A DNA stretch of 39,315 bases from a phage: the sequence record PZ445456.1; one strand, 5' to 3'. The position numbers and the translations under genes were made by a program. Positions within the stretch are counted from its first letter, which is position 1, and each line of letters opens with the position of its first letter. The notes below the pieces were generated by a model that worked only from the letters and a program-made list of their open reading frames with translations, made no database searches and had not been told where the DNA came from. Below are positions 1 to 39,315 of this stretch, one piece after another.

Positions 1-1761
1 ATGTCACAATCCCAAGAAGCTAAGAACGCGCTAATCATTGCGCAACTTAAGGGTGACTTCGTGGCCTTCCTGTTCGTCTTATGGAAGGCTCTGAACTTAC
101 CTAAACCAACCAAGTGTCAGATTGATATGGCACGTACACTCGCTAACGGCGACCACAAGAAGTTTATCCTTCAGGCGTTCCGTGGTATCGGGAAGTCCTT
201 TATCACCTGTGCGTTCGTTGTGTGGGTGCTGTGGCGTGACCCTCAACTGAAGATACTCATCGTGTCTGCCTCCAAGGAACGTGCTGATGCTAACTCCATC
301 TTCATCAAGAACATCATCGACCTCCTTCCGTTCCTCTCTGAGTTGAAACCTCGACCGGGACAGCGAGACTCCGTGATTAGCTTCGATGTTGGCTTGGCTA
401 AACCAGACCACTCTCCCTCTGTGAAGTCTGTAGGTATCACTGGTCAGTTGACTGGTAGCCGTGCTGACATCATTATCGCAGATGACGTTGAGGTTCCCGG
501 TAATAGCTCTACGAGTTCTGCCCGTGAGAAGCTCTGGACGTTGGTAACTGAGTTTGCTGCATTACTTAAGCCGCTGCCTACCTCTCGTGTTATCTACCTT
601 GGCACACCTCAAACCGAGATGACGCTCTACAAGGAACTTGAGGATAACAAAGGTTACAGTACAGTAATCTGGCCAGCACAGTATCCTCGTAATGACGCTG
701 AGGCTCTCTACTATGGGGACCGCTTGGCTCCGATGCTTAAGGCTGAGTATGATGAGGGCTATGAGTTACTTCGTGGTCAACCTACTGACCCTGTTCGATT
801 CGACATGGATGACCTCCGTGAACGTGAACTCGAATATGGTAAAGCTGGCTACACTCTTCAGTTCATGCTTAACCCGAACCTTAGTGATGCCGAGAAGTAC
901 CCTCTACGACTCCGTGACGCTATCGTGTGCGCTGTGGACCCTGAACGTGCCCCATTGTCTTACCAGTGGCTTCCGAACCGTCAGAACCGCAATGAGGAAC
1001 TCCCTAACGTTGGTCTGAAGGGTGATGACATCCATGCGTTCCATACGTGCTCTTCTCGTACCGCTGAGTATCAGTCTAAGATTCTGGTCATTGACCCAAG
1101 TGGTCGTGGTAAGGATGAGACCGGGTATGCAGTCCTCTACTCACTGAACGGTTACATCTACCTGATGGAAGTCGGAGGGTTCCGTGGTGGCTACGATGAT
1201 GCTACCCTAGAGAAGCTCGCTAAGAAGGCCAAGCAGTGGAAGGTACAGACAGTCGTCCATGAGTCCAACTTCGGTGATGGTATGTTCGGTAAGATTTTCT
1301 CTCCGATTCTCCTGAAGCACCATAAGTGTGCCTTAGAGGAAATCCGTGCTAAGGGCATGAAGGAGATGCGAATCTGCGATACTATCGAGCCGTTGATGGG
1401 TGCACACAAGCTGGTCATTCGTGATGAGGTTATCCGTGAGGACTACCAGACTGCTCGTGACCTTGATGGGAAACACGATGTCCGCTACAGTGCGTTCTAT
1501 CAGATGACCCGTATGACTCGTGAGAAGGGCGCTGTGGCACACGATGACCGCATTGATGCTATCGCATTGGGTATCGAGTTCCTTCGTGAAGGGATGCTTG
1601 TGGACAGCCGTGTAGGTGAAGAAGAGATGACCCTTGAGTTCCTTGAACACCACATGGAGAAACAGACCATTGGTGGTGATGCTATCCATAGCTACGAGGC
1701 TGGTGGCGTAGACATCTACTACGAGGACGATGGAGACTCTAGCTGCTTCATTGAGTGGTAA
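1..1761 (+). CDS. 19: Terminase large subunit (DNA maturase B), 586 aa
   Basis: Near full-length match to T7 gp19 as recalled ([25 protein letters not shown]..., [38 protein letters not shown]); RBS AAGGAGG lies at the window end just upstream across the circular junction. Confidence 0.95.
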
Positions 1762-1781
1762 TAGATAATAGGAGGTATATA

Positions 1782-2228
1782 ATGAGAGTGGCAATTGATA
1801 GTATCACTGGTTGCCACATCTTCCAAGGGTGTAAGACTAAGGGTGGCTACGGTAGGATTCGTGTTAATGGTGTTCATTGGATGGCACATCGATACGCACT
1901 ATTCGTCCACCTGAAGCGTCCTTTAAGGGAAGGATGTGTGGTAATGCACTCCTGTGATAACCCTTCGTGTGTCAATCCAGCGCACTTATCTGAGGGAACA
2001 CAGAAAGAGAACATGGCTGACTGTAAGACAAAGGGCCGTATGGTTCGTGGAGGTTCTTCGGGTCCACGCAAAAGTCTTACAGAGAGGCTCCAAGAGTCAT
2101 TTGAGAAACGACTAAAGGCTGTGCTTGAGGCTAATGGCTCAGACGCTGAGGTTGCTAAGAGACTTGGTTTAAACATCCAGTGGGTCAAGAAGGCTCGATC
2201 TGGTAAACTAAATATGCACGTAAAGTGA
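1782..2228 (+). CDS. HNH homing-type endonuclease with C-terminal HTH-like region, 148 aa
   Basis: ATG at 1782 preceded by AGGAGG (1770-1775). HNH signature CHIF..C..GYGRIRVNGVHWMAHRYALFVH...HSCDNPSCVNPAHL; C-terminal EVAKRLGLNIQWVKKARSG resembles a helix-turn-helix. Confidence 0.8.
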   Translation: MRVAIDSITGCHIFQGCKTKGGYGRIRVNGVHWMAHRYALFVHLKRPLREGCVVMHSCDNPSCVNPAHLSEGTQKENMADCKTKGRMVRGGSSGPRKSLTERLQESFEKRLKAVLEANGSDAEVAKRLGLNIQWVKKARSGKLNMHVK

Positions 2229-2294
2229 CTTACTATGCACTATGGGCACCCTATTGAGTGAGGTATAAAAACCTAATGAAATCAAGGGTGTCCC

Positions 2295-2317
2295 TAATAC
2301 GACTCACTATTGGGAAG
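2295..2317 (+). promoter_or_regulatory. Phage RNAP promoter, right-end (phiOR-equivalent)
   Basis: TAATACGACTCACTATTGGGAAG; 22/23 match to this genome's own promoter consensus; position after gene 19 region as in T7. Confidence 0.7.
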
Positions 2318-2476
2318 GGCACCCTAAGACAACTTAAAGACACTTAAAGACTGCATATGCAAAGTGCATACTTAGTGACTAACTCTTAGAGAGACCCTTA
2401 CAGTGAGGGATGATGGTAATAGTAATTACATCCCTACTATCAGTGTAACCATCAAGTATAACAAGGAGGACGCTCT

Positions 2477-2632
2477 ATGCGCTTACTATCCGTGCTCAAG
2501 ACACTGGCAACGCATCGAGTGACTTACAAATTTCTCGTTGTACTTGCTGCTTCCATTGGTCTCGCATCTAGTGCTGAACACATCGGTGAACTGGAGACTC
2601 TGCTTTGTTCTCTACTCACTTGTGTTCCTTAG
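2477..2632 (+). CDS. Small hydrophobic protein, 51 aa (gene 19.5 position)
   Basis: ATG with strong RBS AAGGAGGA 8 nt upstream; MRLLSVLKTLATHRVTYKFLVVLAASIGLASSAEHIGELETLLCSLLTCVP; sits about 180 nt downstream of the right-end promoter as gene 19.5 does in T7. Confidence 0.45.
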   Translation: MRLLSVLKTLATHRVTYKFLVVLAASIGLASSAEHIGELETLLCSLLTCVP

Positions 2633-2639
2633 ACTGATC

Positions 2640-3215
2640 ATCGGCGCTTAGTGCGCTCTTAGTGATTATGGTCGATATACATCTTCCCTATAATCACTGT
2701 AAGAAGTCAACTCTAAGAGTAACCCTTATGTACCACTCTATGGTCTACAGGGTCTCTTAGGGTCTCTCACGTAGTCTCACCTTATGATAGAGCCTCTGTG
2801 GTTAACCTTATGAGACTTGATGTACCCCTTTAAGAATCCTACAGAAAAATCTGAGAGGGTATCTCATAGTTCATACAAAGTGTTTCCCCCCCTATGGCCT
2901 CCTTCAGTTACCCCAAAGAGTCGGCCCCTATGGTAACTTTATGTTTACTTAATGTCAATCCTTATGTGTGACATTGGGTGAATCACTTGGTGTTACCACT
3001 AGATGTAGTGCTTAGTGTGACCTTATGACCACTATATGTAGTCCTCTCTGTGTCCCTATCTGTAAGTGACCATTGAGTTACTCCTTATGTCATCACCTTA
3101 TGTCATCTCCTTATGTCATCACCTAGAGTCTCTCCTTATGGCTGGCTATCCTTATGTTAACCTTCAGTCGGTGCCTTCAGTCGATAGACCTTATGTTGTC
3201 ACTTAAAGACCATAC
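2640..3215. repeat. Genome-terminus region with arrays of short direct repeats (11 CCTTATG copies plus CCTATGG and CCTTCAGTCG variants)
   Basis: CCTTATG at 2724, 2780, 2806, 2960, 3021, 3083, 3096, 3109, 3134, 3150, 3189; triple tandem CCTTATGTCATC(A/T) at 3083-3122; CCTTCAGTCG twice at 3161-3183. Non-coding; positionally equivalent to the T7 terminal repeat with flanking short-repeat arrays. True ends and repeat length cannot be read from sequence alone. Confidence 0.6.
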
Positions 3216-3218
3216 AGC

Positions 3219-3241
3219 TAATACAACTCACTATTGAGGAT
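3219..3241 (+). promoter_or_regulatory. Phage RNAP promoter, left-end (phiOL-equivalent)
   Basis: TAATACAACTCACTATTGAGGA; shares the ACAACTC variant I recall for T7 phiOL; lies upstream of the sigma70 promoter cluster. Confidence 0.6.
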
Positions 3242-3317
3242 TGGTCTTATTAATATTCCCTTCCTTATAGGGCTAACTTAAAGACCACTTAAAGACAACT
3301 ATTTGTCACTTTAAGTA

Positions 3318-3346
3318 TTGACTCTAAGATTAACCTATGAGACTAT
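3318..3346 (+). promoter_or_regulatory. Host sigma70 early promoter (A1-like)
   Basis: TTGACT (3318-3323), 17-nt spacer, GACTAT (3341-3346); surrounding sequence TTGACTCTAAGATTAACCTATGAGACTATAG parallels T7 A1 as recalled. Confidence 0.5.
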
Positions 3347-3452
3347 AGCAACCGTTGAGAGACACAACGCTACCAACTACCAGACAAGACCTAGAGTTAT
3401 CTGGTAAGGCTGAAGGGTCTCAAGTAGTCATCAACCAGACATACGAAAGTGG

Positions 3453-3481
3453 TTGACTCAACGATAGAAACAACGTAGTAT
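3453..3481 (+). promoter_or_regulatory. Host sigma70 early promoter (A2-like)
   Basis: TTGACT (3453-3458), 17-nt spacer, TAGTAT (3476-3481). Confidence 0.45.
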
Positions 3482-3545
3482 AGCAGTCGTCAACAACTGG
3501 TCGCCCTCTGAAACAACATGAGGTGTCACGGTGGCAAACAATAGG

Positions 3546-3575
3546 TTGACAGGCAGCAACAACAAGATGTAAGAT
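3546..3575 (+). promoter_or_regulatory. Host sigma70 early promoter (A3-like)
   Basis: TTGACA (3546-3551), 18-nt spacer, TAAGAT (3570-3575). Confidence 0.5.
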
Positions 3576-3644
3576 GTACGACATAACGTTCTTGTGAAGT
3601 CCCACACTGAAAGGGACTCGGTGCTAACAAAACTGCACTTAAAG

Positions 3645-3735
3645 CTCTTTAACAATTTGGATAATAAGCACTCTTGAGATGATGACAACAGCGATTAACT
3701 CAAGGTGACTCGAAAGAGAAGCCTTTATGATAATC
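3645..3735 (+). promoter_or_regulatory. Putative RNase III processing site upstream of gene 0.3 (R0.3-like)
   Basis: CTCTTTAACAATTTGGATAATAAGCACTCTTGAGATGATGACAACAGCGATTAACTCAAGG...CCTTTATGATAATCACT closely parallels the T7 R0.3 leader as recalled; boundaries approximate. Confidence 0.4.
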
Positions 3736-3762
3736 ACTGCAACCACATGAGGTACACATCCC

Positions 3763-4218
3763 ATGATTCACACTAAAGAGCAAGCTAACGTTTTCTATGT
3801 ACTGGTAAGCGCATTCCGTTCTAACCTGCACCACTTGGATAACCTTAGCCGTCATCGTCGCTTAGTTAACAGCTTACGCAATGCACCTCTGGAATACGGT
3901 AGCGTTGAGTCCACAGACTTAACTGGCTGTTACCATGAGGCTGGCATGGAGTCACCTGCTGAAGAGCAAACCATCCGAGTACGCTGCACGACCAAGGCGC
4001 AAGCTATAAGTGTCGCACGGTTGGCCTGTAACGACTATGAGCAAGACTGTGTACTGGTCTATAAGTCACAGACTCACAGCGCTGCACTAATCTTTGCTGG
4101 TGGCTTAGATGGCTGGAAGACTGAGCGCATTGGGACGTTCCAGATGGTCGCACCCGAAGTTGAACTGATTGGCAACTACACGGTCGATGAGTTCGGACGT
4201 GGCTGGAAGGTAATCTAA
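3763..4218 (+). CDS. 0.3: S-adenosylmethionine hydrolase/lyase (T3-type gene 0.3 anti-restriction), 151 aa
   Basis: MIHTKEQANVFYVLVSAFRSN...YGSVESTDLTGCY...KAQAISVARLACN..EQDCVLVYKSQTH...IDEFGR matches T3 SAMase as recalled; not Ocr-like (not acidic, no DNA mimic character). Confidence 0.88.
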   Translation: MIHTKEQANVFYVLVSAFRSNLHHLDNLSRHRRLVNSLRNAPLEYGSVESTDLTGCYHEAGMESPAEEQTIRVRCTTKAQAISVARLACNDYEQDCVLVYKSQTHSAALIFAGGLDGWKTERIGTFQMVAPEVELIGNYTVDEFGRGWKVI

Positions 4219-4415
4219 TGGTCGCACTCTTCGTAATCACGATGTACGCTCTGATTGGGGCGTACTTCCTTCGAGACTTCCGCAAGGGTCTGAAGGTACA
4301 CAAGGCTAACTTCTCGCACCTGAAGTATGGCTTTCTACCACGATTCACAGTCCGTGAACGCAACGGGCGCTTTAAGGCTAACAAGGTTGGTATCTTCTAT
4401 GTTGCAACACACTGA
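4218..4415 (+). CDS. Small early membrane protein, 65 aa (gene 0.4-0.6 region)
   Basis: TAATG overlap with the 0.3 stop; N-terminal hydrophobic helix VALFVITMYALIGAYFL; no homology recognised. Confidence 0.4.
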   Translation: MVALFVITMYALIGAYFLRDFRKGLKVHKANFSHLKYGFLPRFTVRERNGRFKANKVGIFYVATH

Positions 4416-4563
4416 TAGTTTAACTAAGAAAGTTCTGTACGCACTGGCATATGGTGCTACCAACAAGACTCTAATGCGGGCATTGCACCTGAAGCGGCTG
4501 CCAGCCAGAAAGGTAGCAAAGGCACGTAAAGAAGCACGTTTAATCATCAATTCTCTTTCTTAA
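4399..4563 (+). CDS. Small basic early protein, about 54 aa
   Basis: In-frame ATG at 4399 inside ORF 4327..4563; overlaps the preceding ORF in another frame; basic C-terminus LKRLPARKVAKARKEARLI. Start uncertain. Confidence 0.3.
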   Translation: MLQHTDSLTKKVLYALAYGATNKTLMRALHLKRLPARKVAKARKEARLIINSLS

Positions 4564-4584
4564 ACTTAAATAGGACACAATCTA

Positions 4585-5508
4585 ATGAACTACACCGACA
4601 TTCAGGCACGTCTGGCAATCATCAAGTCACTCCCGATTAGCGAACTGGACAAGCGCCAGCCTCTTCTGGTTGCACTGGCTGCTGACATCGTGAACGGTGA
4701 GACAAGCGATGGCAACGATACAGATGGGTCGCAGGGTCTTGAGTATCAGGACTATTGGCACACATTGGGTGCACTGATGCGTGATGCTGGATTCAAGATG
4801 TTAGGCAATGGTCACTTCAGTGCGGCCTACTCGCACGAAATGTTACCGGGTCGAGTCATCAAGGTTGGCTTTAAGAAAGAGGATTCAGGCGCTGCGTACA
4901 CTGCGTTCTGTAGGATGCACCAAGGCCGAGCGGGTATCCCTAACGTCTATCACGTAGCACGACATGCAGGTTGCTATACGGTCGTACTGGACCGCTTAAA
5001 AAGCTGTGACCGCTACGCTAACGATGTGCACGCAAAGTATGCAAGTGCTGCGCAGGAGTTCATTGAGTGCACTGGAGGTGATGCTGATTGGTACGCACAA
5101 TATGTTAGCAAGGAGTTCATTGAGACGTGCAAGATGATTCGTGAGTTCTTCCACGGTATTGCATCTTTCGACATGCACAGCGGGAACATTATGTTCGATG
5201 ACAACGATGTCCCGTACATCACTGACCCGGTTAGCTTCTCACATGACCGTGAACGTGAGGACGGTTTCCCTCTGGACCCTGAAGCACTGCTGGCTGAGGT
5301 CGAGGCTGTAGCGAAAGAGCGCATGATTGAACGTTGCCGCAACCGCAAGGCCAAGTGTGACCCTAACGGAACCTTTCAGGTTAACCGCAAGGCCGCAATG
5401 AAACGCCGTAAGCGCAACCGCAAGTTACGCGCCAAACGTGATGCTGAGGCTGCAAAGCACTTTGTACAGCATAGACATGGACAAAGCAGGAACTACGGGA
5501 CGCTATGA
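4585..5508 (+). CDS. 0.7: Gene 0.7 protein kinase (N-terminal kinase portion), 307 aa
   Basis: [15 protein letters not shown]...[22 protein letters not shown]...GIPNVY...[10 protein letters not shown]...[13 protein letters not shown]...[11 protein letters not shown] matches T7 gp0.7 as recalled. Confidence 0.9.
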
Positions 5509-5690
5509 GGGCGCAAGATTGGATGGGTGCGCACAACTGGCACAACATGTGGTTGCACAACAACATTGCAGACGTAATCAAGATTGACCAAGTGAACGGC
5601 CTTAAGTGGCAACTAGGGGACCGCCTCGCAATACAAGCGGGTCTCCCTTTGAACATCGACAAGGCACTTGACGCTCAACTGATGGGCTGA
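5505..5690 (+). CDS. Gene 0.7 C-terminal (host shut-off) domain as a separate ORF, 61 aa
   Basis: Different frame, ATGA overlap with the kinase ORF stop; C-terminus [21 protein letters not shown] matches the T7 gp0.7 C-terminus (..LTLNIDKQLDAMLMG). Confidence 0.6.
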
Positions 5691-5763
5691 TAAGGTGTAT
5701 CTTCAAGGTCGGCACTGTCTGCTGGCCTTTATAGATAAACTTTCTTAACAACGTGAGGCAACA

Positions 5764-8415
5764 ATGACTAACGTAATCAACGCACCAAAGAACGACTTCT
5801 CTGACATCGCTAACGCAATCCAGCCGTACAACATTCTGGCTGACCACTACGGTGCACAGCTTGCAGCTACACAGCTTGAGTTAGAACACGAAGCGCACAC
5901 CGAAGGCGAGAAGCGTTTCCTTAAGGCAATGGAACGTCAAATCAAAGCGGGTGAGTTCGGCGATAACGCAGTAGCTAAACCTCTCCTGTCATCCCTCGCA
6001 CCGAAGTTTATCGAGGCGTGGAACACTTGGTTCGCTGAAGTGGAAGCGAAGCGTGGCAAGCGTCCAGTGGCCTACAATCTGGTACAGAAGGTTACACCTG
6101 AAGCTGCTGCATTCATCACACTGAAGGTCACGCTGGCTTGCTTGACCAAAGAGGAATACACGAACCTTCAATCGGTCGCCACTAAGATTGGTCGCAGTAT
6201 TGAAGACGAGCTACGTTTTGGTCGCATCCGTGACGAAGAAGCGAAGCACTTTAAGAACCATGTACAAGAAGCACTCAACAAGCGCGTTGGTATCGTCTAC
6301 AAGAAAGCATTCATGCAAGCGGTTGAAGGCAAGATGTTAGACGCTGGTCAACTACAGACCAAGTGGACCACATGGACACCTGAAGAAGCAATTCACGTTG
6401 GTGTACGCATGTTGGAACTACTCATTGGTTCTACTGGTCTCGTTGAGTTACACCGCCCGTTCGCTGGGAACATCGAGAAGGATGGCGAGTACATCCAGTT
6501 AACAGAACAGTATGTAGACCTGTTATCCAAACGTGCTGGCGCACTGGCTGCAATCGCTCCGATGTATCAGCCTTGCGTGGTCCCGCCTAAGCCTTGGACT
6601 TCTCCGGTCGGCGGTGGCTATTGGGCTGCTGGTCGCAAGCCTCTCTCTCTGGTTCGCACTGGTAGCAAGAAGGGACTGGAACGTTACAACGACGTGTACA
6701 TGCCTGAAGTTTACAAGGCGGTGAACATCGCACAGAATACTCCTTGGAAGATTAACAAGAAGGTTCTGGCAGTGGTCAACGAGATTGTGAACTGGAAGCA
6801 TTGCCCGGTTGAAGATGTACCCGCTCTGGAACGTGGAGAACTTCCGGTCAAACCTGATGACATCGACACCAACGAGGCATCACTCAAAGCATGGAAGAAA
6901 GCGGCCTCCGCAATCTACCGTAAAGAGAAGGCTCGCGTGTCTCGTCGCATGAGCATGGAGTTCATGTTGGGTCAAGCCAATAAGTTCGCACAGTTTAAAG
7001 CTATCTGGTTCCCGATGAATATGGACTGGCGCGGTCGTGTGTACGCGGTCCCGATGTTCAACCCGCAAGGCAACGACATGACCAAAGGCTTGCTGACGCT
7101 CGCTAAAGGTAAACCAATCGGTGTAGATGGGTACTACTGGCTGAAGATTCACGGTGCTAACACTGCTGGCGTGGACAAGGTGGACTTTGCAGAACGCATC
7201 AAGTTCATTGATGACAACCATGAGAACATCCTGAGCGTAGCGGCTGACCCAATTGCTAACACTTGGTGGGCCGAGCAAGACTCTCCGTTCTGCTTCCTCG
7301 CGTTCTGCTTCGAGTATGCAGGTGTGCAACACCACGGGATGAACTACAACTGCTCTCTTCCGCTGGCGTTCGATGGTAGCTGCTCCGGTATTCAGCACTT
7401 CTCCGCGATGCTCCGTGATGAGGTTGGCGGTCGTGCGGTTAACCTGCTGCCGAGCAAGGAAGTACAGGACATCTACCGCATCGTTGCGGAACGTGTGAAC
7501 GAAATCCTGAACCAAGATGTTATCAACGGGACCGACAACGAAGTAGAGACCGTGACCAACAAGGACACAGGGGAAATCACTGAGAAGCTCAAGCTGGGTA
7601 CTAAAGAACTAGCTGGTCAGTGGCTGGCCTATGGTGTGACTCGCAAGGTCACTAAGCGTTCAGTCATGACATTGGCTTACGGTTCCAAAGAGTACGGCTT
7701 CCGTGACCAAGTTCTTGAGGACACCATTCAGCCAGCTATCGACGATGGCAAGGGCTTGATGTTCACTCAACCGAACCAAGCGGCTGGCTATATGGCTAAA
7801 CTGATTTGGAACGCCGTAACGGTGACTGTGGTCGCTGCGGTTGAGGCAATGAACTGGCTGAAGTCTGCTGCTAAACTGCTGGCTGCTGAGGTCAAGGACA
7901 AGAAGACCAAAGAGGTTCTGCGCAAACGCTGTGCGGTACATTGGGTAACTCCTGATGGCTTCCCTGTGTGGCAGGAATACCGTAAGGCAGTACAGACCCG
8001 CTTGAACCTGATGTTCTTAGGTCAGATTCGTTTGCAGCCTACCGTGAACACCAACAAGGATAGCGGCATTGATGCACGTAAGCAGGAGTCAGGTATCGCA
8101 CCTAACTTTGTTCACTCAATGGATGGTAGCCACCTGCGCATGACTGTGGTCCGCTCCAATGAGGTCTACGGTGTGGAATCGTTCGCACTGATTCACGACT
8201 CCTTTGGCACTATCCCTGCTGATGCTGGCAACCTGTTTAAAGCAGTGCGTGAAACTATGGTCAACACTTACGAAGAGAACGATGTACTTGCAGACTTCTA
8301 TGAGCAATTTGCTGACCAGTTGCACGAATCACAGCTTGACAAGATGCCTGAGATGCCAGCTAAAGGTTCTCTGGACCTGCAAGAAATCCTTAAGTCAGAC
8401 TTTGCGTTTGCCTAA
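5764..8415 (+). CDS. 1: Single-subunit DNA-dependent RNA polymerase, 883 aa
   Basis: Collinear match to T7 RNAP over the full length; motif C IHDSFGT and specificity-loop residues R746/N748/R756/Q758 present (QTRLNLMFLGQIRLQPT). Confidence 0.98.
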   Translation: MTNVINAPKNDFSDIANAIQPYNILADHYGAQLAATQLELEHEAHTEGEKRFLKAMERQIKAGEFGDNAVAKPLLSSLAPKFIEAWNTWFAEVEAKRGKRPVAYNLVQKVTPEAAAFITLKVTLACLTKEEYTNLQSVATKIGRSIEDELRFGRIRDEEAKHFKNHVQEALNKRVGIVYKKAFMQAVEGKMLDAGQLQTKWTTWTPEEAIHVGVRMLELLIGSTGLVELHRPFAGNIEKDGEYIQLTEQYVDLLSKRAGALAAIAPMYQPCVVPPKPWTSPVGGGYWAAGRKPLSLVRTGSKKGLERYNDVYMPEVYKAVNIAQNTPWKINKKVLAVVNEIVNWKHCPVEDVPALERGELPVKPDDIDTNEASLKAWKKAASAIYRKEKARVSRRMSMEFMLGQANKFAQFKAIWFPMNMDWRGRVYAVPMFNPQGNDMTKGLLTLAKGKPIGVDGYYWLKIHGANTAGVDKVDFAERIKFIDDNHENILSVAADPIANTWWAEQDSPFCFLAFCFEYAGVQHHGMNYNCSLPLAFDGSCSGIQHFSAMLRDEVGGRAVNLLPSKEVQDIYRIVAERVNEILNQDVINGTDNEVETVTNKDTGEITEKLKLGTKELAGQWLAYGVTRKVTKRSVMTLAYGSKEYGFRDQVLEDTIQPAIDDGKGLMFTQPNQAAGYMAKLIWNAVTVTVVAAVEAMNWLKSAAKLLAAEVKDKKTKEVLRKRCAVHWVTPDGFPVWQEYRKAVQTRLNLMFLGQIRLQPTVNTNKDSGIDARKQESGIAPNFVHSMDGSHLRMTVVRSNEVYGVESFALIHDSFGTIPADAGNLFKAVRETMVNTYEENDVLADFYEQFADQLHESQLDKMPEMPAKGSLDLQEILKSDFAFA

Positions 8416-8422
8416 CGGAATC

Positions 8423-8445
8423 TAATACGACTCACTATTGGGAGA
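8423..8445 (+). promoter_or_regulatory. Phage RNAP promoter (phi1.1A-equivalent)
   Basis: TAATACGACTCACTATTGGGAGA, exact consensus; followed by a G9 run and an AT-rich CTTTAAG-repeat leader. Confidence 0.8.
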
Positions 8446-8512
8446 CCCTTGGGGGGGGGTTTCCCCTACTTTAAGATAACTTTAAGTTTTAACTTTAAGA
8501 GGAAACATAATC

Positions 8513-9070
8513 ATGTTTACTTTCATCACTTCAGTAGGCGCTCTCGTAGCAACCATTCTTGCAGCAACATACTACAACCGTTCAAAGGTATTTCTCACTA
8601 AGCTAATCAAAGAAGAGAAGAACTCTCACGCACTCAAAGAGAGACTTGAAGATGGGTGGCGAGAGAAGCAGGAACTGGCTGGTCGAATCCGTACCTTAGA
8701 GTTCGAACAACAATATGACATGTCGAACCAACGAGAACTCATTGAGCGTCTACGCGCTGAGGCAGTGGAGTACCGCAAGGAACTTAAAGAGGCAAAGAGT
8801 ATCATCCGTGAGTACACACACAGTGACATCACGTCTATCAAGTTTACTGCTCACATCCCGGATGCTGGATGGAAGCGCACTGAGTTCAAGCTAGGTATAG
8901 GGTCTTGCGGCAAAGAGGTTACGTGTTTGCACTGGAAAGAACAGTCGGACCGCTACCTGCTGACACAGACGTGCACTGATGGTGAGCGCAAAGAGTTCAC
9001 CTATTATAAGAAAGACGTAGCTGGTTGCATTGAGATTGCACGTAAGGTTGCAGACAATACGACTCACTAA
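8513..9070 (+). CDS. Membrane-anchored coiled-coil protein with Cys-containing C-terminal domain, 185 aa, function unknown
   Basis: RBS GAGGAAACATAATC-ATG; N-terminal TM helix FTFITSVGALVATILAATYY, predicted coiled coil (aa ~30-100, KE/RE-rich), C-terminal domain with 4 Cys; no T7 homologue recognised at this position. Confidence 0.7.
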   Translation: MFTFITSVGALVATILAATYYNRSKVFLTKLIKEEKNSHALKERLEDGWREKQELAGRIRTLEFEQQYDMSNQRELIERLRAEAVEYRKELKEAKSIIREYTHSDITSIKFTAHIPDAGWKRTEFKLGIGSCGKEVTCLHWKEQSDRYLLTQTCTDGERKEFTYYKKDVAGCIEIARKVADNTTH

Positions 9071-9077
9071 TGGGAAA
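9055..9077 (+). promoter_or_regulatory. Phage RNAP promoter (phi1.1B-equivalent), embedded in the 3' end of the preceding ORF
   Basis: CAATACGACTCACTAATGGGAAA; the promoter codons encode the C-terminal NTTH-stop of ORF 8513..9070. Confidence 0.6.
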
Positions 9078-9087
9078 CACTGAAAGT

Positions 9088-9129
9088 TAAACTCAAGGTC
9101 ATCTACATGGTGGCCTTCATGATTAACTG
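9088..9129 (+). promoter_or_regulatory. RNase III-type processing hairpin (R1.1-like), copy 1 of 3
   Basis: TAAACTCAAGGTCATCTACATGGTGGCCTTCATGATTAACTG; upper stem AAGGTCA/TGGCCTT, lower stem AGTTAA/TTAACT with internal loop; resembles T7 R1.1 as recalled. Confidence 0.55.
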
Positions 9130-9159
9130 TCAACGATACTACCAAGAGGAAATAACATT

Positions 9160-9581: not shown

Positions 9582-9601
9582 TACGACTCACTATTGCGAG
9601 A
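9579..9601 (+). promoter_or_regulatory. Phage RNAP promoter (phi1.3-equivalent)
   Basis: TAATACGACTCACTATTGCGAGA; overlaps the gene 1.2 stop codon. Confidence 0.7.
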
Positions 9602-9603
9602 GG

Positions 9604-19039: not shown

Positions 19040-19267
19040 ATGGCATGGCGATACAGGATTCGGGAAGTCCGAATGACTACAGGTGAGACTTTATATTACC
19101 CGCAGTTCCGTCATGAGTGGTTCCCGTTCTGGTGCCACTTTAAGGACTACCCGGAAGAACGAAGGGTGTCATTCACTTACTACAGTGATGCGCTTGAGTT
19201 CGTCAATGAGTCTAAATCCACTGATGAACCTGAAGTAAAACAGGTTGTCAAGAATCATTATCTTTAA
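19040..19267 (+). CDS. Hypothetical aromatic-rich small protein, 75 aa (gene 5.3 position)
   Basis: RBS AGGAGG; MAWRYRIREVRMTTGETLYYPQFRHEWFPFWCHFKDYPEERR...; not HNH-like. Confidence 0.5.
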   Translation: MAWRYRIREVRMTTGETLYYPQFRHEWFPFWCHFKDYPEERRVSFTYYSDALEFVNESKSTDEPEVKQVVKNHYL

Positions 19268-29437: not shown

Positions 29438-29439
29438 CT

Positions 29440-30045: not shown

Positions 30046-30062
30046 ACACAGGAGGAAACTGT

Positions 30063-32342: not shown

Positions 32343-32365
32343 CAGACCACGATAGGAGGTTCCAA

Positions 32366-35300
32366 GTGGATAAGTATAACCCGAACGAACCGCATGAATA
32401 TGATGCGTTATTTCAACAAGCTGCTGACACACATGGAGTCTCCTATGGCCTTCTTCGGAAGGTCGGTTGGGTAGAGTCCCGATTCAAACCTACGGCCCAA
32501 TCTCCAACAGGGCCACGAGGTGTCATGCAGTTCACTAAGGCAACTGGTCAGGCTTATGGCCTACAGTCTGATGAGGACTTCAACGACCCGGCTAAGTCTA
32601 TTGATGCTGGCGCTCGTTACCTTGCAGACCTCGTTAAGAAATACAATGGGGATGAACTCAAAGCTGCCCTAGCGTACAACCAAGGCGAGGGGCGTAATGG
32701 TAAACCTCAATTGGAAGCCTACGACTCCGGTAACTTCGCTGGCATCGGTGATGAGGGGCGCAACTATCTCCGCTCACTTCTGGATGTCGCTAAGTCTCCT
32801 AAGAGTGGTGACATTGAGTCCTTCGGTGGTATCACCCCAAAGGGTAAAGGGATTCCGTTCGATGCTGCTATGAGTGGTATCGGGAAGAAAGGAAAGGTAA
32901 CTACAGAACTCCCTGAGTCTCACTCAATGTCCTTTCAAGGTAAAGAACAGGCCGCTCCCAATCAGCCGTTCGGAAAAGACTATTGGGAAGCAAAAGGAAC
33001 TACACTCGACGAAGCCAATGAGCGTTCAACCTTCTTCGGATTCGGTAACGCTGCTGAAGCAGAACTCTCCAACTCAACCTTGGGTGTGGCCTTCCGTGCT
33101 GGTAAGCGTGATAATGGTTTCGATGTTGTTACTGATGTACTTCAACCGACACGGTTTAACAGCCACATTTGGTCGCCTGAAGAACTCGAAAGGATTCGCA
33201 ACGAAGTGAAGAACCCGGCGTACATGAACGTAGTGCTTGGAGGTTCCTCTGAGAATCTGGATGAACTCATCAAGTTAGCCAACGAGAACTATGAGTTGGA
33301 CGCTAAGGCCGCTGATGCTGGACTTGGTGCGAAACTATCTGCTGGGATTATCGGTGCTGGTGTGGACCCTCTGACCTACGTTCCAATCGCTGGGACTGCG
33401 GCTAATGGATTCAAACTGGTGAACAAGGCGCTGATTGTTGGCGCACAGGCAGGTGCTCTTAACGTTGCCTCTGAAGGTCTGCGTACATCGGTGGCTGGTG
33501 GTGATGCTCACTACGCAGAAGCTGCCCTTGCTGGTATGCTGTTCGCTGGTGGACTGACAGCCATCGCTGACGGTGTTGCCGCAGGTCTCCGTAAGTCTGG
33601 CGCTGAACAGATTGAGAACCCGTTTGCTGCTGCACAGATGCGCTTTGAGGCTCGTGAGACTGCCCGTAACACTGGTGGACATGACGCAAGTCGAATGCCT
33701 CCTAGTGAAGACCGAGTGTTCTCACAGCACAACGGCGTTGAGTATTCACCTCTTGAGACCGAACCGGGTGCCGTAGTGTTGCGTGATGGTTCCATTATCA
33801 GTGACACCAACTTAGCTAACCCGATGACAGCCAAAGAGTTCGCCGAGGTGGACCCTGAACGTGCTGCGTGGGGATTGCCTATGCGTGGACTGAGTGAAAT
33901 CGGCTTGAGGACTTTACGTTCTGAACATGCTGAAATCCGTGGTCTCGCTAAGGACTTAGTGCGTTCACCTACAGGGATGGAGTCTGGCTCACATGGTAAG
34001 TTCGGTGCTACCGCATCTGACATCAAAGAGCGACTGCACAGTACCAACCAGCGAACCTACAATGACCTCTATGATGCAATGAAGGAAGCAATGGCTGACC
34101 CTGAGTGGTCCGTGGGTATGTTCAAGCGTGGTGCTCAAGGTGCCCGTCAGGAAATCTATCGTCGTGCTGCTATCGCTATTGAGCGTCCAGAACTTCAAGC
34201 CAACTTAACGAAGGCTGAACGTAAGGTGATGGACATCATGAAGGAACACTTCGACCTCAAGCGTGAGATGATGGAGAACCCGGCTATGTTCGGTAACAAG
34301 GCAACTTCCATCTTCCCTAACAGTCGTCACAAAGGGACTTACGTTCCTCATGTGTACTCACGGGAAGCCAAGCAGTTGTACTCACAGGCTCTTGGTGGCT
34401 CTGATGGTTTACAGGAAGCTATCGCTGCAAGCTGGATGACATCTTATCGTGCACGTCCAGAAGTTAAGGCTCGTGTTGATGAGCACTTAGCGGAGACTTT
34501 GGGTATCGACCCTAAATCTGTGACTGAAGAGATGGTGATGAAACATGCTAGAGACAAGGCTTATGGTATTGCGAAGACCGATGAGTTCAACTCTTCAAGT
34601 GTCATCGACGATAACATTGAGGGTCTCGTAGGGATTGAGAACAACTCGTTCCTTGAAGCCCGTAACCTGTTCGACTCTGACATGCCAGTCACCTTACCGA
34701 ATGGACAACAGTTCTCTGTGAATGACCTCCGTGACTTCGATATGAAGCATGTGATGCCAGCCTATGACCGCCGTGTTGATGGTGACATCGCTATCATGGG
34801 TGGTACAGGAAAGACTACTGCTGAACTCAAGGATTCCATTATGGCTCTCGATAAGAAGTCTGAAGGTAAAGGCACAATGAAAGGTGAAGTGGAGGCGCTC
34901 AAGGATACCGTTAAGATTCTCACAGGCCGTGCTCGACGCAATCAGGATACTATGGGTGACACTATGGTTCGCGCTCTGTCCGATATGTCCTTCTTCACGA
35001 AGAACGCATACATGGGCTTGCAGAACCTAACTGAAATCTCTGGTCTCTTGGCGAAGGGTAACACCCGTGCGATGCTTCATGGCATTCCTGCTCTGCGTGA
35101 CCTAGCGTTCCGTAACAAGCCAGTGTCCGGTAAGGAACTTAAGGAACTACACTCTATGGTGTTCGGTAAAGAGTTCGATGACTTAATCAGACCGACACGT
35201 CAGGACATCATTCAGCGACTCCGTGAATCTACGGATACACCTGATGTTGCCGCTAAGGTTGTTGGTACGGTTAAACACACCACTCAAGAGTTGGCTGCTC

Positions 35301-36313
35301 GCTCTCCGTTCACTAAGTTCCTAAATGGTACTTCCAACTACATTCTGGACATGGCCCGTCAAGGTGTCATGGGAGATGTGGTAACTCATGCCATTACAGG
35401 TAAGGGTGCCAACAAGTGGATTAAAGGAGACATGCTGAAATCTGCGAGTATCTCTAAGGAACAGTGGGAAGGCATTCAGAACCTCATCCGTGAGAACGTC
35501 ACTCAAGGTGCTGACGGCAAGTACACCTTCAAGGACAAGCGTAAGCTGGCTAATGACCCGCGAGCTATGGACCTGTGGCGACTGGCTGATAAGGTAGCTG
35601 ATGAAACAATGCTGAGACCACACAAGGTGTCCTTACAGGATTCCCATGCGTTTGGTGCTCCTGCTAAGTTGGTCCTTCAGTTCAAGTCTTTCGTAATCAA
35701 GTCGATGAACTCTAAGTTTATCCGCTCCGGTAACGAAGCCTTTAAGAACCATCGTGCTATGGACATGGCGCTGACCTATGCTATCTCTGGTGGCATTGCT
35801 GGCTCCTACTATGTTGCACAGGCTCACTTGAAAGCTGCTGGTCTTCCTAAAGAGCAACAGAAGGACTACTTGAAGAAAGCCCTTGACCCTAAGATGATTG
35901 CCTATGCTGCTGCGTCCCGAAGTTCACACCTTGGGTCGCCTCTGAGTATCGCAAACTTCGCTATGGGCGCTGCTGGTTATGACCAAGGTCTCATGGTCCG
36001 CTCTACGATTCTCCCGAAAGGTGAGGACAAGCGGGAACGGAACAAGGCGGTAACTTCTCGTGACATGAGTGACTCCATTATGGGTGCATTAGGTGAACAG
36101 ATTCCTGCTCTTGGATTCGCCGGGGCAACCTTTGCTGCTGGTCGAAATGCTTATGGTGTCCTTACGGCTCCTAACAAAGTGACCGAGCGTGAGATGATGA
36201 CTGGTCTGATGAACGCTCATCGTGAGATGGTTCCGAACGACCCAATCACTCAACAGATGCTCATTAAGTTCTATGAGGCTAACGGTGTTCACCTTAAGTC
36301 TGACAAGAAGTAA
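32366..36313 (+). CDS. 16: Internal virion protein D with N-terminal lytic transglycosylase domain, 1315 aa; GTG start
   Basis: N-terminus MDKYNPNEPHEYDALFQQAAD.HGVSYGLLRKVGWVESRF.PTA.S.TGP.GVMQFTKAT...ALAYNQGEG matches T7 gp16; GTG at 32366 preceded by RBS GGAGG. Confidence 0.93.
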   Translation: MDKYNPNEPHEYDALFQQAADTHGVSYGLLRKVGWVESRFKPTAQSPTGPRGVMQFTKATGQAYGLQSDEDFNDPAKSIDAGARYLADLVKKYNGDELKAALAYNQGEGRNGKPQLEAYDSGNFAGIGDEGRNYLRSLLDVAKSPKSGDIESFGGITPKGKGIPFDAAMSGIGKKGKVTTELPESHSMSFQGKEQAAPNQPFGKDYWEAKGTTLDEANERSTFFGFGNAAEAELSNSTLGVAFRAGKRDNGFDVVTDVLQPTRFNSHIWSPEELERIRNEVKNPAYMNVVLGGSSENLDELIKLANENYELDAKAADAGLGAKLSAGIIGAGVDPLTYVPIAGTAANGFKLVNKALIVGAQAGALNVASEGLRTSVAGGDAHYAEAALAGMLFAGGLTAIADGVAAGLRKSGAEQIENPFAAAQMRFEARETARNTGGHDASRMPPSEDRVFSQHNGVEYSPLETEPGAVVLRDGSIISDTNLANPMTAKEFAEVDPERAAWGLPMRGLSEIGLRTLRSEHAEIRGLAKDLVRSPTGMESGSHGKFGATASDIKERLHSTNQRTYNDLYDAMKEAMADPEWSVGMFKRGAQGARQEIYRRAAIAIERPELQANLTKAERKVMDIMKEHFDLKREMMENPAMFGNKATSIFPNSRHKGTYVPHVYSREAKQLYSQALGGSDGLQEAIAASWMTSYRARPEVKARVDEHLAETLGIDPKSVTEEMVMKHARDKAYGIAKTDEFNSSSVIDDNIEGLVGIENNSFLEARNLFDSDMPVTLPNGQQFSVNDLRDFDMKHVMPAYDRRVDGDIAIMGGTGKTTAELKDSIMALDKKSEGKGTMKGEVEALKDTVKILTGRARRNQDTMGDTMVRALSDMSFFTKNAYMGLQNLTEISGLLAKGNTRAMLHGIPALRDLAFRNKPVSGKELKELHSMVFGKEFDDLIRPTRQDIIQRLRESTDTPDVAAKVVGTVKHTTQELAARSPFTKFLNGTSNYILDMARQGVMGDVVTHAITGKGANKWIKGDMLKSASISKEQWEGIQNLIRENVTQGADGKYTFKDKRKLANDPRAMDLWRLADKVADETMLRPHKVSLQDSHAFGAPAKLVLQFKSFVIKSMNSKFIRSGNEAFKNHRAMDMALTYAISGGIAGSYYVAQAHLKAAGLPKEQQKDYLKKALDPKMIAYAAASRSSHLGSPLSIANFAMGAAGYDQGLMVRSTILPKGEDKRERNKAVTSRDMSDSIMGALGEQIPALGFAGATFAAGRNAYGVLTAPNKVTEREMMTGLMNAHREMVPNDPITQQMLIKFYEANGVHLKSDKK

Positions 36314-36314
36314 T

Positions 36315-36337
36315 CAATACGACTCACTATTGGGAAG
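36315..36337 (+). promoter_or_regulatory. Phage RNAP promoter (phi17-equivalent)
   Basis: CAATACGACTCACTATTGGGAAG followed by leader hairpin GGGAAGG..CTTCCC. Confidence 0.7.
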
Positions 36338-36383
36338 GCTCACACAGCTTCCCTTCTATTATACCCAACTAAGGAGGTACATT

Positions 36384-38258
36384 ATGGCTCTCAAGATTCG
36401 TACCGTAATGACTTATCCGCTAACAGGTGCTGTGGACTTTGCAATCACCTTTGAATACTTAGCGCGTAAGTTCGTGACGGTAACTCTAATTGGTAAAGAC
36501 CGTAAGGAACTGGTTCTCAATCAGGACTATCGGTTCACCACTAAGACACAAATCACTACAACACGCACGTGGACGGCGGCTGACGGATATGACTCTATTG
36601 AGATTCGTCGATACACCTCCGCGACTGACCGTCTGGTTGACTTTGCTGATGGCTCAATCCTTCGTGCATATGACCTAAACATCGCACAGATTCAAACGCT
36701 TCACGTTGCTGAAGAAGCACGAGACCTCACTGCGGATACCATTGGTGTCAACAACGAGGGTCACTTGGATGCGCGTGGTCGACGCATCGTCAATGTAGCT
36801 AACCCTATAGATGATGGCGATGCAGTCAACCTGCGCTCTATCAAGCAGTGGAACGACTCCGCTCTTAACTCTGCAAACAGGGCAAAGGCTTCCGAGGAAG
36901 AAGCAAAGCGACAGACTGATTGGGCCGGACGTATGCGCAATGAGTCAGAACAGTTCCGTAACGAGGCCAATCAACACCGAGCGGTGGCTGAGTCTGCCAA
37001 GGACCAAGCAATTACCGCTAAGAATCAAGCTGAATCGGCAAGAGACCTCGCTTCAGGTTCTCGGAGTGAAGCATCAAGGTTCGCTGAAGAGTCCAACCAG
37101 TATATGTCACGGTCTAAGCAATGGGCTGTCAACCCGGTAGATGTTGTAGTCACAGATGGTGAATACTCCGCGAAGCACTGGCAGCATCATTCTAAGGTTG
37201 AGGCCGACCGCTCGAAGAGAGAGGCTGACCGAGCAACCACTGAGGCTGACAAGCTGGGAAACATGAACGCACTTGCAGGTGCCATTGAGGAAGTAAGTCC
37301 AGACCACGTTGTTTCATGGTCGGCTACAGCTAAGTTTAAAGGTGAACTCATTGCCAACCGCTCAATGACTCTTCGTGCAGCGGATGAACAGGGTGCTATG
37401 GGACAGATGGTTCACGAATATGACGACACAGTCGGACGTCATGTCTCGAATACCTATTGGGCCATCAAGCACCCACATAGAGGAGAATGGCATGTTCCCT
37501 ATAAGATTCTAAACCTACCTAACGATTCTGCGGCGTGGGAGATGCACTTCGGGGACTTAATGCGTTGTTATAATGGATTGAAGGTCGAAGGGTTTAATAA
37601 ATCACTAGATGTAACCAATCAGGCGAATACTGCCGTTCGAACGGTGGCATATGGTCCGGGCGATTTGACCCAAGGGGCGTGGGTGTGTAACACTCGTTGG
37701 AACTTCTACGATTCAGGGTTAGAAATTGGATGGGTTCGAGGTGGTTCTACGAACGGCAACGGCCTAATCCGGTGGAAGCCGGAAGGAACTCAAGCGACAT
37801 ATCATGATATTTGGCTAAACCCGGGCGGTGTGGTGCAGTTCCCCGAGAAGATTCTCGTAGGGGCGGGTGGTGCCTCCGTTGGTGTTGATGGTAATATTGA
37901 TGGCTCACTTTGGGGTGGTAATCTATACGGCTGGCTGAACAACCGCTTAGGTGATCGACCAACGTTTGCTCAAGGAGACGGGCGCTATGTTCGAAAGAGT
38001 GCTGGTTGGGCTGAAGTATGGAGTGGTTCCGCTGGTGGTGGGGTATCCGTAGGTCTCAATCAGGATGTCCGCTGGAGAACTATCTGGATTCAAACTCAAG
38101 GCAGATGGAACCCTGTTCAGATTGGGGACGATGGGGCTTACTATATCTCGTCTATGGGTGGGTGGCTACAGTTCACAATCTCAGACAACGGGAGAACTTT
38201 CCGTAACGATGCAGACAGAAGCTCTGTTCCTACGAGAATCTTGGTTCAAACCCAATAA
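36384..38258 (+). CDS. 17: Tail fiber protein, 624 aa
   Basis: N-terminus (TV.TY.L.G...F.I.FEYLARKFV.VTLIG.DRK.L..N.DYRF...T...T..W..ADGY..IE.RR.TS.TDRLVDF.DGSILRAYDLN.AQIQT.HVAEEARDLT.DTIGVNN.GHLDARGRRIVN) and C-terminal tip (W..VWSGSAGGGVSV) match T7 gp17; central region divergent; internal ATG 36384 with RBS AAGGAGG. Confidence 0.93.
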   Translation: MALKIRTVMTYPLTGAVDFAITFEYLARKFVTVTLIGKDRKELVLNQDYRFTTKTQITTTRTWTAADGYDSIEIRRYTSATDRLVDFADGSILRAYDLNIAQIQTLHVAEEARDLTADTIGVNNEGHLDARGRRIVNVANPIDDGDAVNLRSIKQWNDSALNSANRAKASEEEAKRQTDWAGRMRNESEQFRNEANQHRAVAESAKDQAITAKNQAESARDLASGSRSEASRFAEESNQYMSRSKQWAVNPVDVVVTDGEYSAKHWQHHSKVEADRSKREADRATTEADKLGNMNALAGAIEEVSPDHVVSWSATAKFKGELIANRSMTLRAADEQGAMGQMVHEYDDTVGRHVSNTYWAIKHPHRGEWHVPYKILNLPNDSAAWEMHFGDLMRCYNGLKVEGFNKSLDVTNQANTAVRTVAYGPGDLTQGAWVCNTRWNFYDSGLEIGWVRGGSTNGNGLIRWKPEGTQATYHDIWLNPGGVVQFPEKILVGAGGASVGVDGNIDGSLWGGNLYGWLNNRLGDRPTFAQGDGRYVRKSAGWAEVWSGSAGGGVSVGLNQDVRWRTIWIQTQGRWNPVQIGDDGAYYISSMGGWLQFTISDNGRTFRNDADRSSVPTRILVQTQ

Positions 38259-38302
38259 TGGAATACAACGAGGCCAAGGATGGCTGACACTAGGAGGACA
38301 CA

Positions 38303-38509
38303 ATGCTGTCATTAGATTTTAATAACGAGGTAGTGAAGGCTGCACCGATTGTAGGGACAGGGGTAGCCGATGGCGCTGCCCGTCTGTTCTTCGGGCTGTC
38401 ACTTAACGAGTGGTTCTATGTAGCCGCAATTGCCTACACAGTGGCTCAAATTGGTGCCAAGGTAGTCGATGTGATTATCAAATGGAAGAAGGAGGGCAAA
38501 GATGTCTAA
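38303..38509 (+). CDS. 17.5: Holin (class II), 68 aa
   Basis: MLSLDFNNE..KAAPIVGTGVAD..ARLFFGLSLNEWFYVAAIAYTV.QIGAKVVD matches T7 gp17.5. Confidence 0.88.
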   Translation: MLSLDFNNEVVKAAPIVGTGVADGAARLFFGLSLNEWFYVAAIAYTVAQIGAKVVDVIIKWKKEGKDV

Positions 38510-38771
38510 CGATAAATCATTAATCCAATTCCTTGAGATGCTGGATACTGAGATGGCTCAACGTATGCTGAAAGACCTTCAGGATGACGATAAACGCACA
38601 CCTCAACTGTACAACGCAATCGGGAAACTGTTAGAGCGTCACAAGTTCCAAGTATCCAAGCTACAACCAGACCGTAACATCCTTGGTGGACTTGCTGATG
38701 GCCTTCAGGAGTATCAGAACCTAGTAGGTGACGATGGTCTCACTGAAGATGAGAAGTACACGCTGAACTGA
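38502..38771 (+). CDS. 18: Terminase small subunit (DNA maturase A), 89 aa
   Basis: DKSLI.FLEMLDT.MAQRML.DL.D...R.PQLYNAI.KLL.RHKFQ..KLQPD..ILGGLA..L.EY...VGD.GLT.D..YTL matches T7 gp18. Confidence 0.92.
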   Translation: MSNDKSLIQFLEMLDTEMAQRMLKDLQDDDKRTPQLYNAIGKLLERHKFQVSKLQPDRNILGGLADGLQEYQNLVGDDGLTEDEKYTLN

Positions 38772-38775
38772 TGGA

Positions 38776-38820
38776 ATAACTCAAGGCCACTACATCTAGT
38801 GGTCTTTATGATATTTCAAC
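38776..38820 (+). promoter_or_regulatory. RNase III-type hairpin upstream of gene 18.5 (R18.5-like)
   Basis: ATAACTCAAGGCCACTACATCTAGTGGTCTTTATGAT; stem AAGGCCACTA/TAGTGGTCTT with one G-U; same AACTCAAGG..CCTT architecture as the R1.1-type copies. Confidence 0.45.
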
Positions 38821-38869
38821 ACAACTCACGGTAACGCTACGTGAAATCTGAAAATACGGGAGGGTAGTT

Positions 38870-39315
38870 ATGCTCAAGAATTTAAAGAGCTACGCCATCG
38901 CTGTGGCCTTTGTCTTGGGGATGACCCTTGCGTACAACCACGGATATGACAAAGCTAACACTAAATGGGAACAGGAGGTGCACAATGAGTACGTTAAGAA
39001 AGTTAAGGCGACTGAGGATAAACAGGCTGCTATTAACGAAGTCTCACGACAATACCAAGAAGACCTTGCGGCGCTGGAAGGCAGCACTGATAGGGTCATT
39101 AATGATTTGCGTAACGATGGTAAGCGGCTGCGTGTCAAGCTGTCAAACACCTCACGAGAGCTCCAAGCTAACGGTGGATGCCTCGCTGATGGTCGAGCCG
39201 AACTTGACGAAGAGTTTAGTAAGCGTCTTATCGGAGTAACTCAAAGAGGGGATGCGTGGATTCGTGCGCTCCAAGATACAATAACTGAAATGCAAACTAA
39301 GAAGGAGGCTAAGTA
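38870..39315 (+). CDS. 18.5: Spanin inner-membrane subunit (Rz-like), 3' end at the window edge; stop completes across the circular junction
   Basis: RBS GGGAGGG; N-terminal TM anchor KSYAIAVAFVLGMTLAY then coiled coil; 148 codons open to the window end; final ta plus the first a of the window form TAA. Confidence 0.85.
   Translation, partial: MLKNLKSYAIAVAFVLGMTLAYNHGYDKANTKWEQEVHNEYVKKVKATEDKQAAINEVSRQYQEDLAALEGSTDRVINDLRNDGKRLRVKLSNTSRELQANGGCLADGRAELDEEFSKRLIGVTQRGDAWIRALQDTITEMQTKKEAK
38985..39239 (+). CDS. 18.7: Spanin outer-membrane lipoprotein subunit (Rz1-like), embedded in 18.5 in the +1 frame, 84 aa
   Basis: RBS CAGGAGGTG; MSTLRKLRRL...ALIGSLMICVTMVSGC (lipobox-like ..SGC); C-terminus LMVEPNLT matches T7 gp18.7 (..ISGCAS...LMVEPNLT). 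Confidence 0.8.
   Translation: MSTLRKLRRLRINRLLLTKSHDNTKKTLRRWKAALIGSLMICVTMVSGCVSSCQTPHESSKLTVDASLMVEPNLTKSLVSVLSE

Follow-up and report, generated by a model that had tools for sequence, protein, structure and literature searches.

Edges of the record

The window analysed here is the whole of sequence record PZ445456.1, 39,315 nucleotides (nt) of phage DNA taken on the plus strand as written; all coordinates refer to it, and the genes and promoters described below lie on the plus strand unless the minus strand is named. We are concerned with how the two edges of this T7-like record relate to the physical ends of the virion DNA. The window opens with gene 19, which encodes the large terminase subunit (1-1761; 586 amino acids; phrog_38, E 8.7e-132; PF22530, the T7 terminase RNaseH-like domain, E 9e-40) and shares 93.8% amino acid identity with gp19 of Escherichia phage BA14 (EU734171 / NC_011040). 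At the far edge are gene 18 for the small terminase subunit (38502-38771; phrog_1351, E 4e-42) and gene 18.5 for an Rz-type i-spanin (PF03245), which runs from 38870 to 39315 and has its stop codon completed by base 1; circular translation gives 148 amino acids plus the stop, 93.8% identical to BA14 gp18.5. Gene 18.7 for the o-spanin (38985-39239; PF17531 O_Spanin_T7, E 3.6e-24) lies inside 18.5 in a different reading frame.

Read as a circle, the two edges form a single gene junction. The 3' edge ends in ...AAGAAGGAGGCTAAGTA and the 5' edge continues with ATGTCA; in a longer reading, ...ACTAAGAAGGAGGCTAAGTA at the end is followed by ATGTCACAA at the restart. The TAA of gene 18.5 consists of 39314, 39315 and base 1, and base 1 is also the A of the gene 19 ATG. 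An earlier interpretation made from the letters of the window (the sequence-only reading) had held that the record is opened at gene 19, that a TAATG stop/start overlap is rebuilt over the window edge and that the gene 19 ribosome-binding site (RBS) sits at the window end. All of this can be seen directly in the circular reading; the RBS, AAGGAGG at 39302-39308, is 7 nt before the ATG as read from the sequence and is identical in Salmonella phage JSS2.

Related phages carry the same junction in uninterrupted form. The string AAGGAGGCTAAGTAATGTCACAATCC is identical in JSS2, where the Rz and terminase coding sequences (CDS) share base 36650. When a 548-nt query spanning the junction is searched, 58 phage records each cover at least 80% of it at one place, and the best of these align to it without a break at 92-97% identity. 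Genes 18.5 and 19 directly abut, with the same TAATG overlap and RBS, in JSS2, JSS1, vB_CECAV_058, WW1, Kvp1 and dozens more. Because the junction is continuous in these relatives, the window edge is a cut through continuous DNA and not a physical end. A check for a second gene 18.5 C-terminus or gene 19 RBS elsewhere was negative: BA14 gp18.5 and gp19 both match best at the window junction, and the list of open reading frames (ORFs) holds no second copy of either gene.

The junction query does split into two pieces on BA14, FE44, ETEP21B, PhiV-1 and CarlSpitteler, all of which have an extra ORF of ~560 bp between 18.5 and 19. This pattern would be expected if the window were incomplete, or if the join from 39315 to 1 were a misjoin with sequence lost or misplaced between the two genes. 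We regard such an error as very improbable, given the dozens of relatives in which 18.5 and 19 meet in the same way; the extra ORF of BA14 is an unannotated insert missing from many relatives, and the other BA14 genes are accounted for. Since so many relatives are without it, we treat the ORF as an optional insert and reject the loss of a gene from the window at this point.

The remainder of the genome bears out the claim that the record is complete. Gene content was compared by searching the 50 BA14 CDS against the window with tblastn, and colinearity was assessed with the window rotated to 2862 and a copy of 2862-3057 appended. In this form the alignment extends along BA14 from nt 1 through nt 39816 without a change of order or orientation, and 48 of the 50 CDS have a syntenic counterpart, most of them 90-100% identical at the amino acid level. 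The matched set includes RNA polymerase, ligase, SSB, endonuclease, lysozyme, primase/helicase, DNA polymerase and exonuclease, and also portal, scaffold, capsid, tail tube, internal proteins, tail fibre, holin, spanins and terminase. The other two are the 185-amino-acid ORF of unknown function between BA14 18.5 and 19, which has no tblastn match in the window, and gp2.8, whose sole relative in the window by tblastn is an HNH gene at a different site (1782-2228, 41% identity). The genes all share one strand and follow the conserved T7 arrangement (0.3 to 19.5).

Concatemer junction and predicted physical ends

The sequence-only reading had given the gene order as 19, HNH, phiOR, 19.5, repeats, early promoters and 0.3 through to 18.5/18.7, and every one of these elements can be located in the window. 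The right-end promoter for phage RNA polymerase, phiOR, is at 2295-2317 (TAATACGACTCACTATTGGGAAG) and departs at two positions from the promoter consensus derived from the window itself; BA14 39073, the first base of the annotated BA14 phiOR, is where the right end of BA14 begins to align. Gene 19.5 follows at 2477-2632 (51 amino acids; phrog_2193, E 4.7e-24; 100% identical to BA14 gp19.5). Next comes a repeat-rich concatemer-junction region at 2640-3215, with CCTTATG-type heptamers on both sides of and inside the predicted terminal repeat and an array of 13-bp period at 3083-3128. Eleven of the 15 CCTTATG copies in the genome fall within 2724-3195 (binomial P ~9e-18). The phage promoter phiOL (TAATACAACTCACTATTGAGGAT) at 3219-3241 aligns to BA14 phiOL at 353-375. 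The packaging and concatemer-junction signals are thereby all placed, at 2295-3241. Three early promoters for host RNA polymerase, analogues of A1-A3, are at 3318-3354, 3453-3489 and 3546-3580; they align to the annotated BA14 host promoters at 460-496, 595-631 and 685-722.

The layout is that of T7 and T3: short heptamer repeats flank the terminal repeat, phiOR is upstream, phiOL and the early host promoters are downstream, and gene 19.5 is between phiOR and the repeat. The heptamer itself differs, being CCTTATG here and CCTAAAG in T7, where it occurs 13 times in the reconstructed concatemer junction; lineages differ in its sequence but preserve the arrangement. The interior of the repeat cannot be aligned to T7.

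Within this region we predict a direct terminal repeat of 196 bp at 2862-3057, with the left physical end at 2862 and the right one at 3057. The prediction starts from BA14, whose annotated terminal repeat is 194 bp long and present at 1-194 and 39623-39816; both copies align to 2862-3057. The BA14 left end aligns from 2862 on, and the BA14 right end aligns to 2295-3057, stopping at 3057. In a self-BLAST of the window, 2862-3057 is present once. The claim that the terminal repeat has been collapsed to one copy is thus upheld, and the placement of the physical ends inside 2640-3215 is supported and can be sharpened by homology to these two positions.

At the left boundary, the window at 2862 reads TCTCATAGTTC... 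(boundary string TCTCATAG; also read as TCTCATAGTTCATACAAAGTG and TCTCATAGTTCATACAAAGTGTTT). The first 24 nt from this position are identical to BA14 and FE44, and the start is common to T3 (left end TCTCATAGTTCAAG) and T7 (left end TCTCACAGTGTACG), in the form TCTCA(C/T)AG. The T7 boundary string, TCTCACAG, is one base off from the TCTCATAG of the window, BA14, FE44 and T3.

At the right boundary, window 3044-3063 consists of CTCTCTGTGTCCCT followed directly by ATCTGT. The string ...GTGTCCCT and then ATCTGT is common to the window, BA14, FE44, T3 and T7, and Berlin is similar there; the repeat end shared with T7 and T3 can also be written ...TGTGTCCCT and then ATCTGT. With more sequence on each side of the boundary, the window has ...GTCCTCTCTGTGTCCCT before it and ATCTGTAAG after it, T7 (nt 160) has ...GTGTCTCTCTGTGTCCCT and ATCTGTTAC, T3 (nt 231) has ...CTCTATGTGTCCCT and ATCTGTTAG, and BA14 and FE44 have ...CTCTGTGTCCCT and ATCTGTAAT. 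BA14 also carries an annotated 'concatemeric junction' (193-200), and this octamer, CTATCTGT, is identical at window 3056-3063; the window and BA14 therefore have the same boundary sequences as well as the same octamer.

Other public records have ends at the same places. Those of BA14, FE44, JSS1, JSS2, PYPS50, PYps50T and vB_CECAV_058 start at the equivalent of 2862/2863, and those of BA14 and PcCB251 end at the equivalent of 3057. In IMG/VR, the left-end 24-mer is found at 8 loci on 6 contigs, with two copies each in contigs of 39,648 bp and 39,860 bp; in the latter, one copy is at position 1 and the other locus is consistent with the far end. This distribution is consistent with the predicted ends, yet it is not independent evidence for them. 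We consider it likely, from homology, that the physical ends are exactly 2862 and 3057. The virion DNA should then run from 2862 to 39315 and on from 1 to 3057, giving 39,315 + 196 = ~39,511 bp. The predicted repeat of 196 bp compares with 160 bp in T7 and 231 bp in T3. Among Berlinvirus phages, a repeat of 195 bp in 6phi10 is backed by coverage and restriction mapping (PMC13600099), and one of 184 bp has been given for PYps49T/50T (PMC8762354).

Some further features of the region can be noted. Inverted repeats near the junction might supply a hairpin intermediate like the one known from the processing of T7 concatemers. On the minus strand, inside the repeat, a candidate leftward sigma-70-like promoter at 2930-2958 (TTGACA-17-TACCAT, 10/12 matches) is named from its consensus match only. 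A leftward A0 promoter is annotated close to the left end of the T7 and T3 records (within the repeat in the case of T3), and the candidate resembles it in position. Among the early promoters, BA14 724-875, a segment of ~150 bp with a fourth annotated host promoter (834-870), has no counterpart at window 3580-3584, which leaves the window with three strong early promoters instead of four. Promoters for the phage RNA polymerase number 16 on the plus strand and none on the minus strand, with the consensus TAATACGACTCACTATTGGGAGA; 10 sites are within 3 mismatches, compared with 0 expected in shuffles.

Packaging and the origin of the record

During T7 replication the DNA forms concatemers in which neighbouring units share a single repeat; the gp18/gp19 terminase makes its cuts at fixed positions, and a second copy of the repeat is produced, leaving one at each virion end (summaries in PMC10438801 and PMC13600099). 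Deletion of repeats and opening of contigs in mid-genome are documented for short-read assemblies of T7-like phages (PMC10438801), and the program Dnaapler restarts phage genomes at terL, the large terminase gene (PMC11783317).

Our reading of the window, to which we assign a probability of about 0.93, is that it comprises a single complete genome unit, that of a T7-like Berlinvirus phage (BA14/285P/Berlin group; Studiervirinae), written as a rotated record with a single copy of the terminal repeat. The steps leading to such a record can be proposed by analogy. Inside the cell, genome units would be joined head to tail in concatemers with one terminal repeat between them; the gp18/gp19 terminase would cut at fixed sites, with duplication of the repeat during packaging, and the virion DNA would be linear, with unique ends and the same short repeat at each. 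Reads from the two repeat copies would be identical; because they could not be told apart, the assembler would merge the copies, and the contig would close on itself or be opened anywhere. The apparently circular sequence would then have been opened at the large terminase ATG by software convention. The outcome would be what the window contains: an 18.5/19 junction split over its edges and an internal concatemer junction made up of right-end unique DNA, the repeat at 2862-3057 and left-end unique DNA. Such an exact start on the terL ATG suggests that software reoriented the sequence on purpose, and not that an assembler happened to break it there (cf. PMC11783317). Repeat loss and arbitrary opening are documented assembly artefacts, a known kind of bookkeeping effect.

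Public Berlinvirus records disagree on end positions, and several are opened at arbitrary points. Besides the present one, rotated records include nasanit, whose final position is the end of the tail-fibre gene, as well as S523, P483 and P694, which are opened elsewhere. The Escherichia phages Carena (OR769031) and nasanit (PV245933) resemble the window in being opened off the physical ends, with the gene 19 start ~1.3 kb and ~1.6 kb into the respective records. The BA14 record differs in this regard, in that it starts at the physical left end and carries a copy of the 194-bp repeat at each end; the window starts at gene 19 and carries one copy.

The window behaves as a circle with one copy of every sequence, and that is the sole point in favour of a quite different packaging mode, a headful mechanism that would fill virions with truly circularly permuted, terminally redundant DNA lacking fixed ends. 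We give this possibility hardly any weight. In place of the features of headful packaging (P22/T4 type), the window has a T7-type terminase pair (phrog_1351 for the small subunit; phrog_38 and PF22530 for the large one) and the conserved T7/T3 end sequences; short direct terminal repeats are annotated, or backed by experiment, in relatives that are 88-94% identical. Headful packaging is rejected on these three grounds. The description of the genome as circularly permuted is consequently correct for the record but not for the virion DNA, which in T7-type phages has unique ends.

Several points nevertheless weigh against reading the window as a rotated unit with ends at 2862 and 3057. The assembler or reorientation tool behind the record is not visible from the sequence, and the termini and the doubling of the repeat rest on homology. 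Repeat lengths vary, with 184, 193, 194, 195 and 226 bp in Berlinvirus, 160 bp in T7 and 231 bp in T3. The Berlin record begins with CTAATAGTAC, not TCTCATAG, and Escherichia phage ETEP21B (OR979722) annotates a right repeat of 145 bp (2881-3025) that aligns up to window 3130, inside the 13-bp array. The boundaries might therefore differ from the BA14-based prediction, for instance with a right end near 3130 in that array or a repeat shorter or longer than 196 bp, the rest of the interpretation being unchanged. The range of 184 to 226 bp within Berlinvirus would allow this, and several Yersinia and Salmonella records end at the equivalents of 3113 and 3173. We find such a shift unlikely: both boundary motifs are conserved in T7, T3, BA14 and FE44 and are intact in the window at 2862 and 3057, and the BA14 junction octamer is identical. 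The annotated right repeat of ETEP21B ends in a tandem CACCTAGAGTCAC array, away from the conserved T7/T3/BA14 boundaries. This repeat would start without the conserved left-end sequence and so looks like an assembly overlap rather than a mapped end; as a definition of the ends, we judge it less likely than the conserved T7/T3 boundaries.

For the rotated, single-repeat record that we favour, the consequences are chiefly practical, for those who annotate the record or compare it with others. Its edges are not the physical ends. Gene 18.5 is split over the edge and will therefore be missed by linear gene callers, and the stated length omits one 196-bp copy of the repeat.

Relatives and classification

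Hundreds of records of T7-like phages match both parts of the window, taken as the first 25 kb and the last 14 kb. The first 25 kb has 89-94% identity over 83-92% of the query to nasanit, Carena, P483, JSS1, BA14, 285P and PYPS50, the nearest being Carena and nasanit (94.4% and 93.8% over 87%). The last 14 kb has 88-93% identity over 90-92% of the query to ETEP21B, PhiV-1, JSS1, FE44 and 285P, with ETEP21B the nearest (93.3% over 92%). The closest relatives thus change along the genome, from Carena/nasanit (~94%) in the early and DNA-metabolism half to ETEP21B (~93%) in the structural half, and the genome is accordingly a mosaic.

The International Committee on Taxonomy of Viruses (ICTV) genus criterion of at least 70% nucleotide similarity to genus members (quoted in PMC13600099) is exceeded by the matches of 88-94% over 83-92% of the query to BA14, 285P, FE44, PYPS50 and ETEP21B, these being match identities and not VIRIDIC values. 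No record in the August 2025 collection is at least 95% identical over the full length; the phage is therefore absent from that collection and is probably a new species-level member of Berlinvirus. Every testable defining feature of Berlinvirus and of T7-type ends was found. The genome topology is that of the textbook and the phage is a new but unremarkable member of its genus, whose species status is of routine taxonomic interest and adds no new biology.

The window and BA14 agree in gene order (0.3 to 19.5) and promoter consensus and share phiOL, phiOR and all but one of the four BA14 host promoters; their colinear blocks are 88-93% identical in nucleotide sequence. Of the two, only the window has an HNH gene after gene 19, and only BA14 has the ORF separating 18.5 from 19 and, before gene 5, the HNH-type gp2.8. 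In the window, gene 0.7 is split, and gp0.3 and the tail fibre are diverged. A tRNA scan of the window found no tRNA genes, and an Rfam scan found no family at the gathering threshold.

Genes of note

The single-subunit phage RNA polymerase gene is at 5764-8415 (883 amino acids; phrog_414, 1126 bits) and its product has 98% amino acid identity to BA14 gp1. Gene 0.3, the first gene of the canonical map, is at 3763-4218. Its matches (PF23780, E 2e-39; phrog_2226, E 1e-43) identify the predicted product as a T3-type S-adenosylmethionine lyase, not T7 Ocr; it is diverged, with 68% amino acid identity to BA14.

The HNH homing endonuclease gene (1782-2228; phrog_6254, E 2e-57; PF13392 HNH_3) is inserted between gene 19 and phiOR. 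An HNH gene is found at the same site after gene 19 in Berlin, BP12A and ETEP21B but not in BA14, whose gp2.8 sits before gene 5, a position where the window has none. The distribution looks like that of mobile endonuclease genes occupying different intergenic sites in different relatives.

Gene 0.7 (protein kinase/host shut-off, 4585-5690) is split into an ORF of 307 amino acids at 4585-5508 and one of 61 amino acids at 5505-5690, the latter matching positions 307-366 of the kinase family profile. An A-run near 5478-5486 is one base shorter than in BA14 (ACAAAGC versus ACAAAAGC), and relatives annotate the gene as a single kinase. The split may be either a real frameshift mutation or a homopolymer sequencing error.

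In the tail-fibre gene 17 (~36384-38258), relatives share the conserved N-terminus and final 290 nt, and the middle and distal part (36781-37967) is without a close match in any Berlinvirus record. The best nucleotide match of this segment is 75%, to Escherichia phage EmilieLinder_Bas103, and an exact 38-mer from the divergent region has no match in IMG/VR. Overall, the fibre has 47% amino acid identity to that of BA14. The mosaic composition suggests a different receptor specificity. It is possible, if somewhat doubtful, that the window represents an undescribed Berlinvirus species with a truly split gene 0.7 (307 + 61 amino acids) and, in addition, a mosaic fibre signalling a different receptor range.

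Between gene 5 and gene 5.5, an ORF of 75 amino acids at 19040-19267, which has no equivalent in BA14 and no Pfam match, belongs to phrog_18049 (function unknown; E 1e-52).

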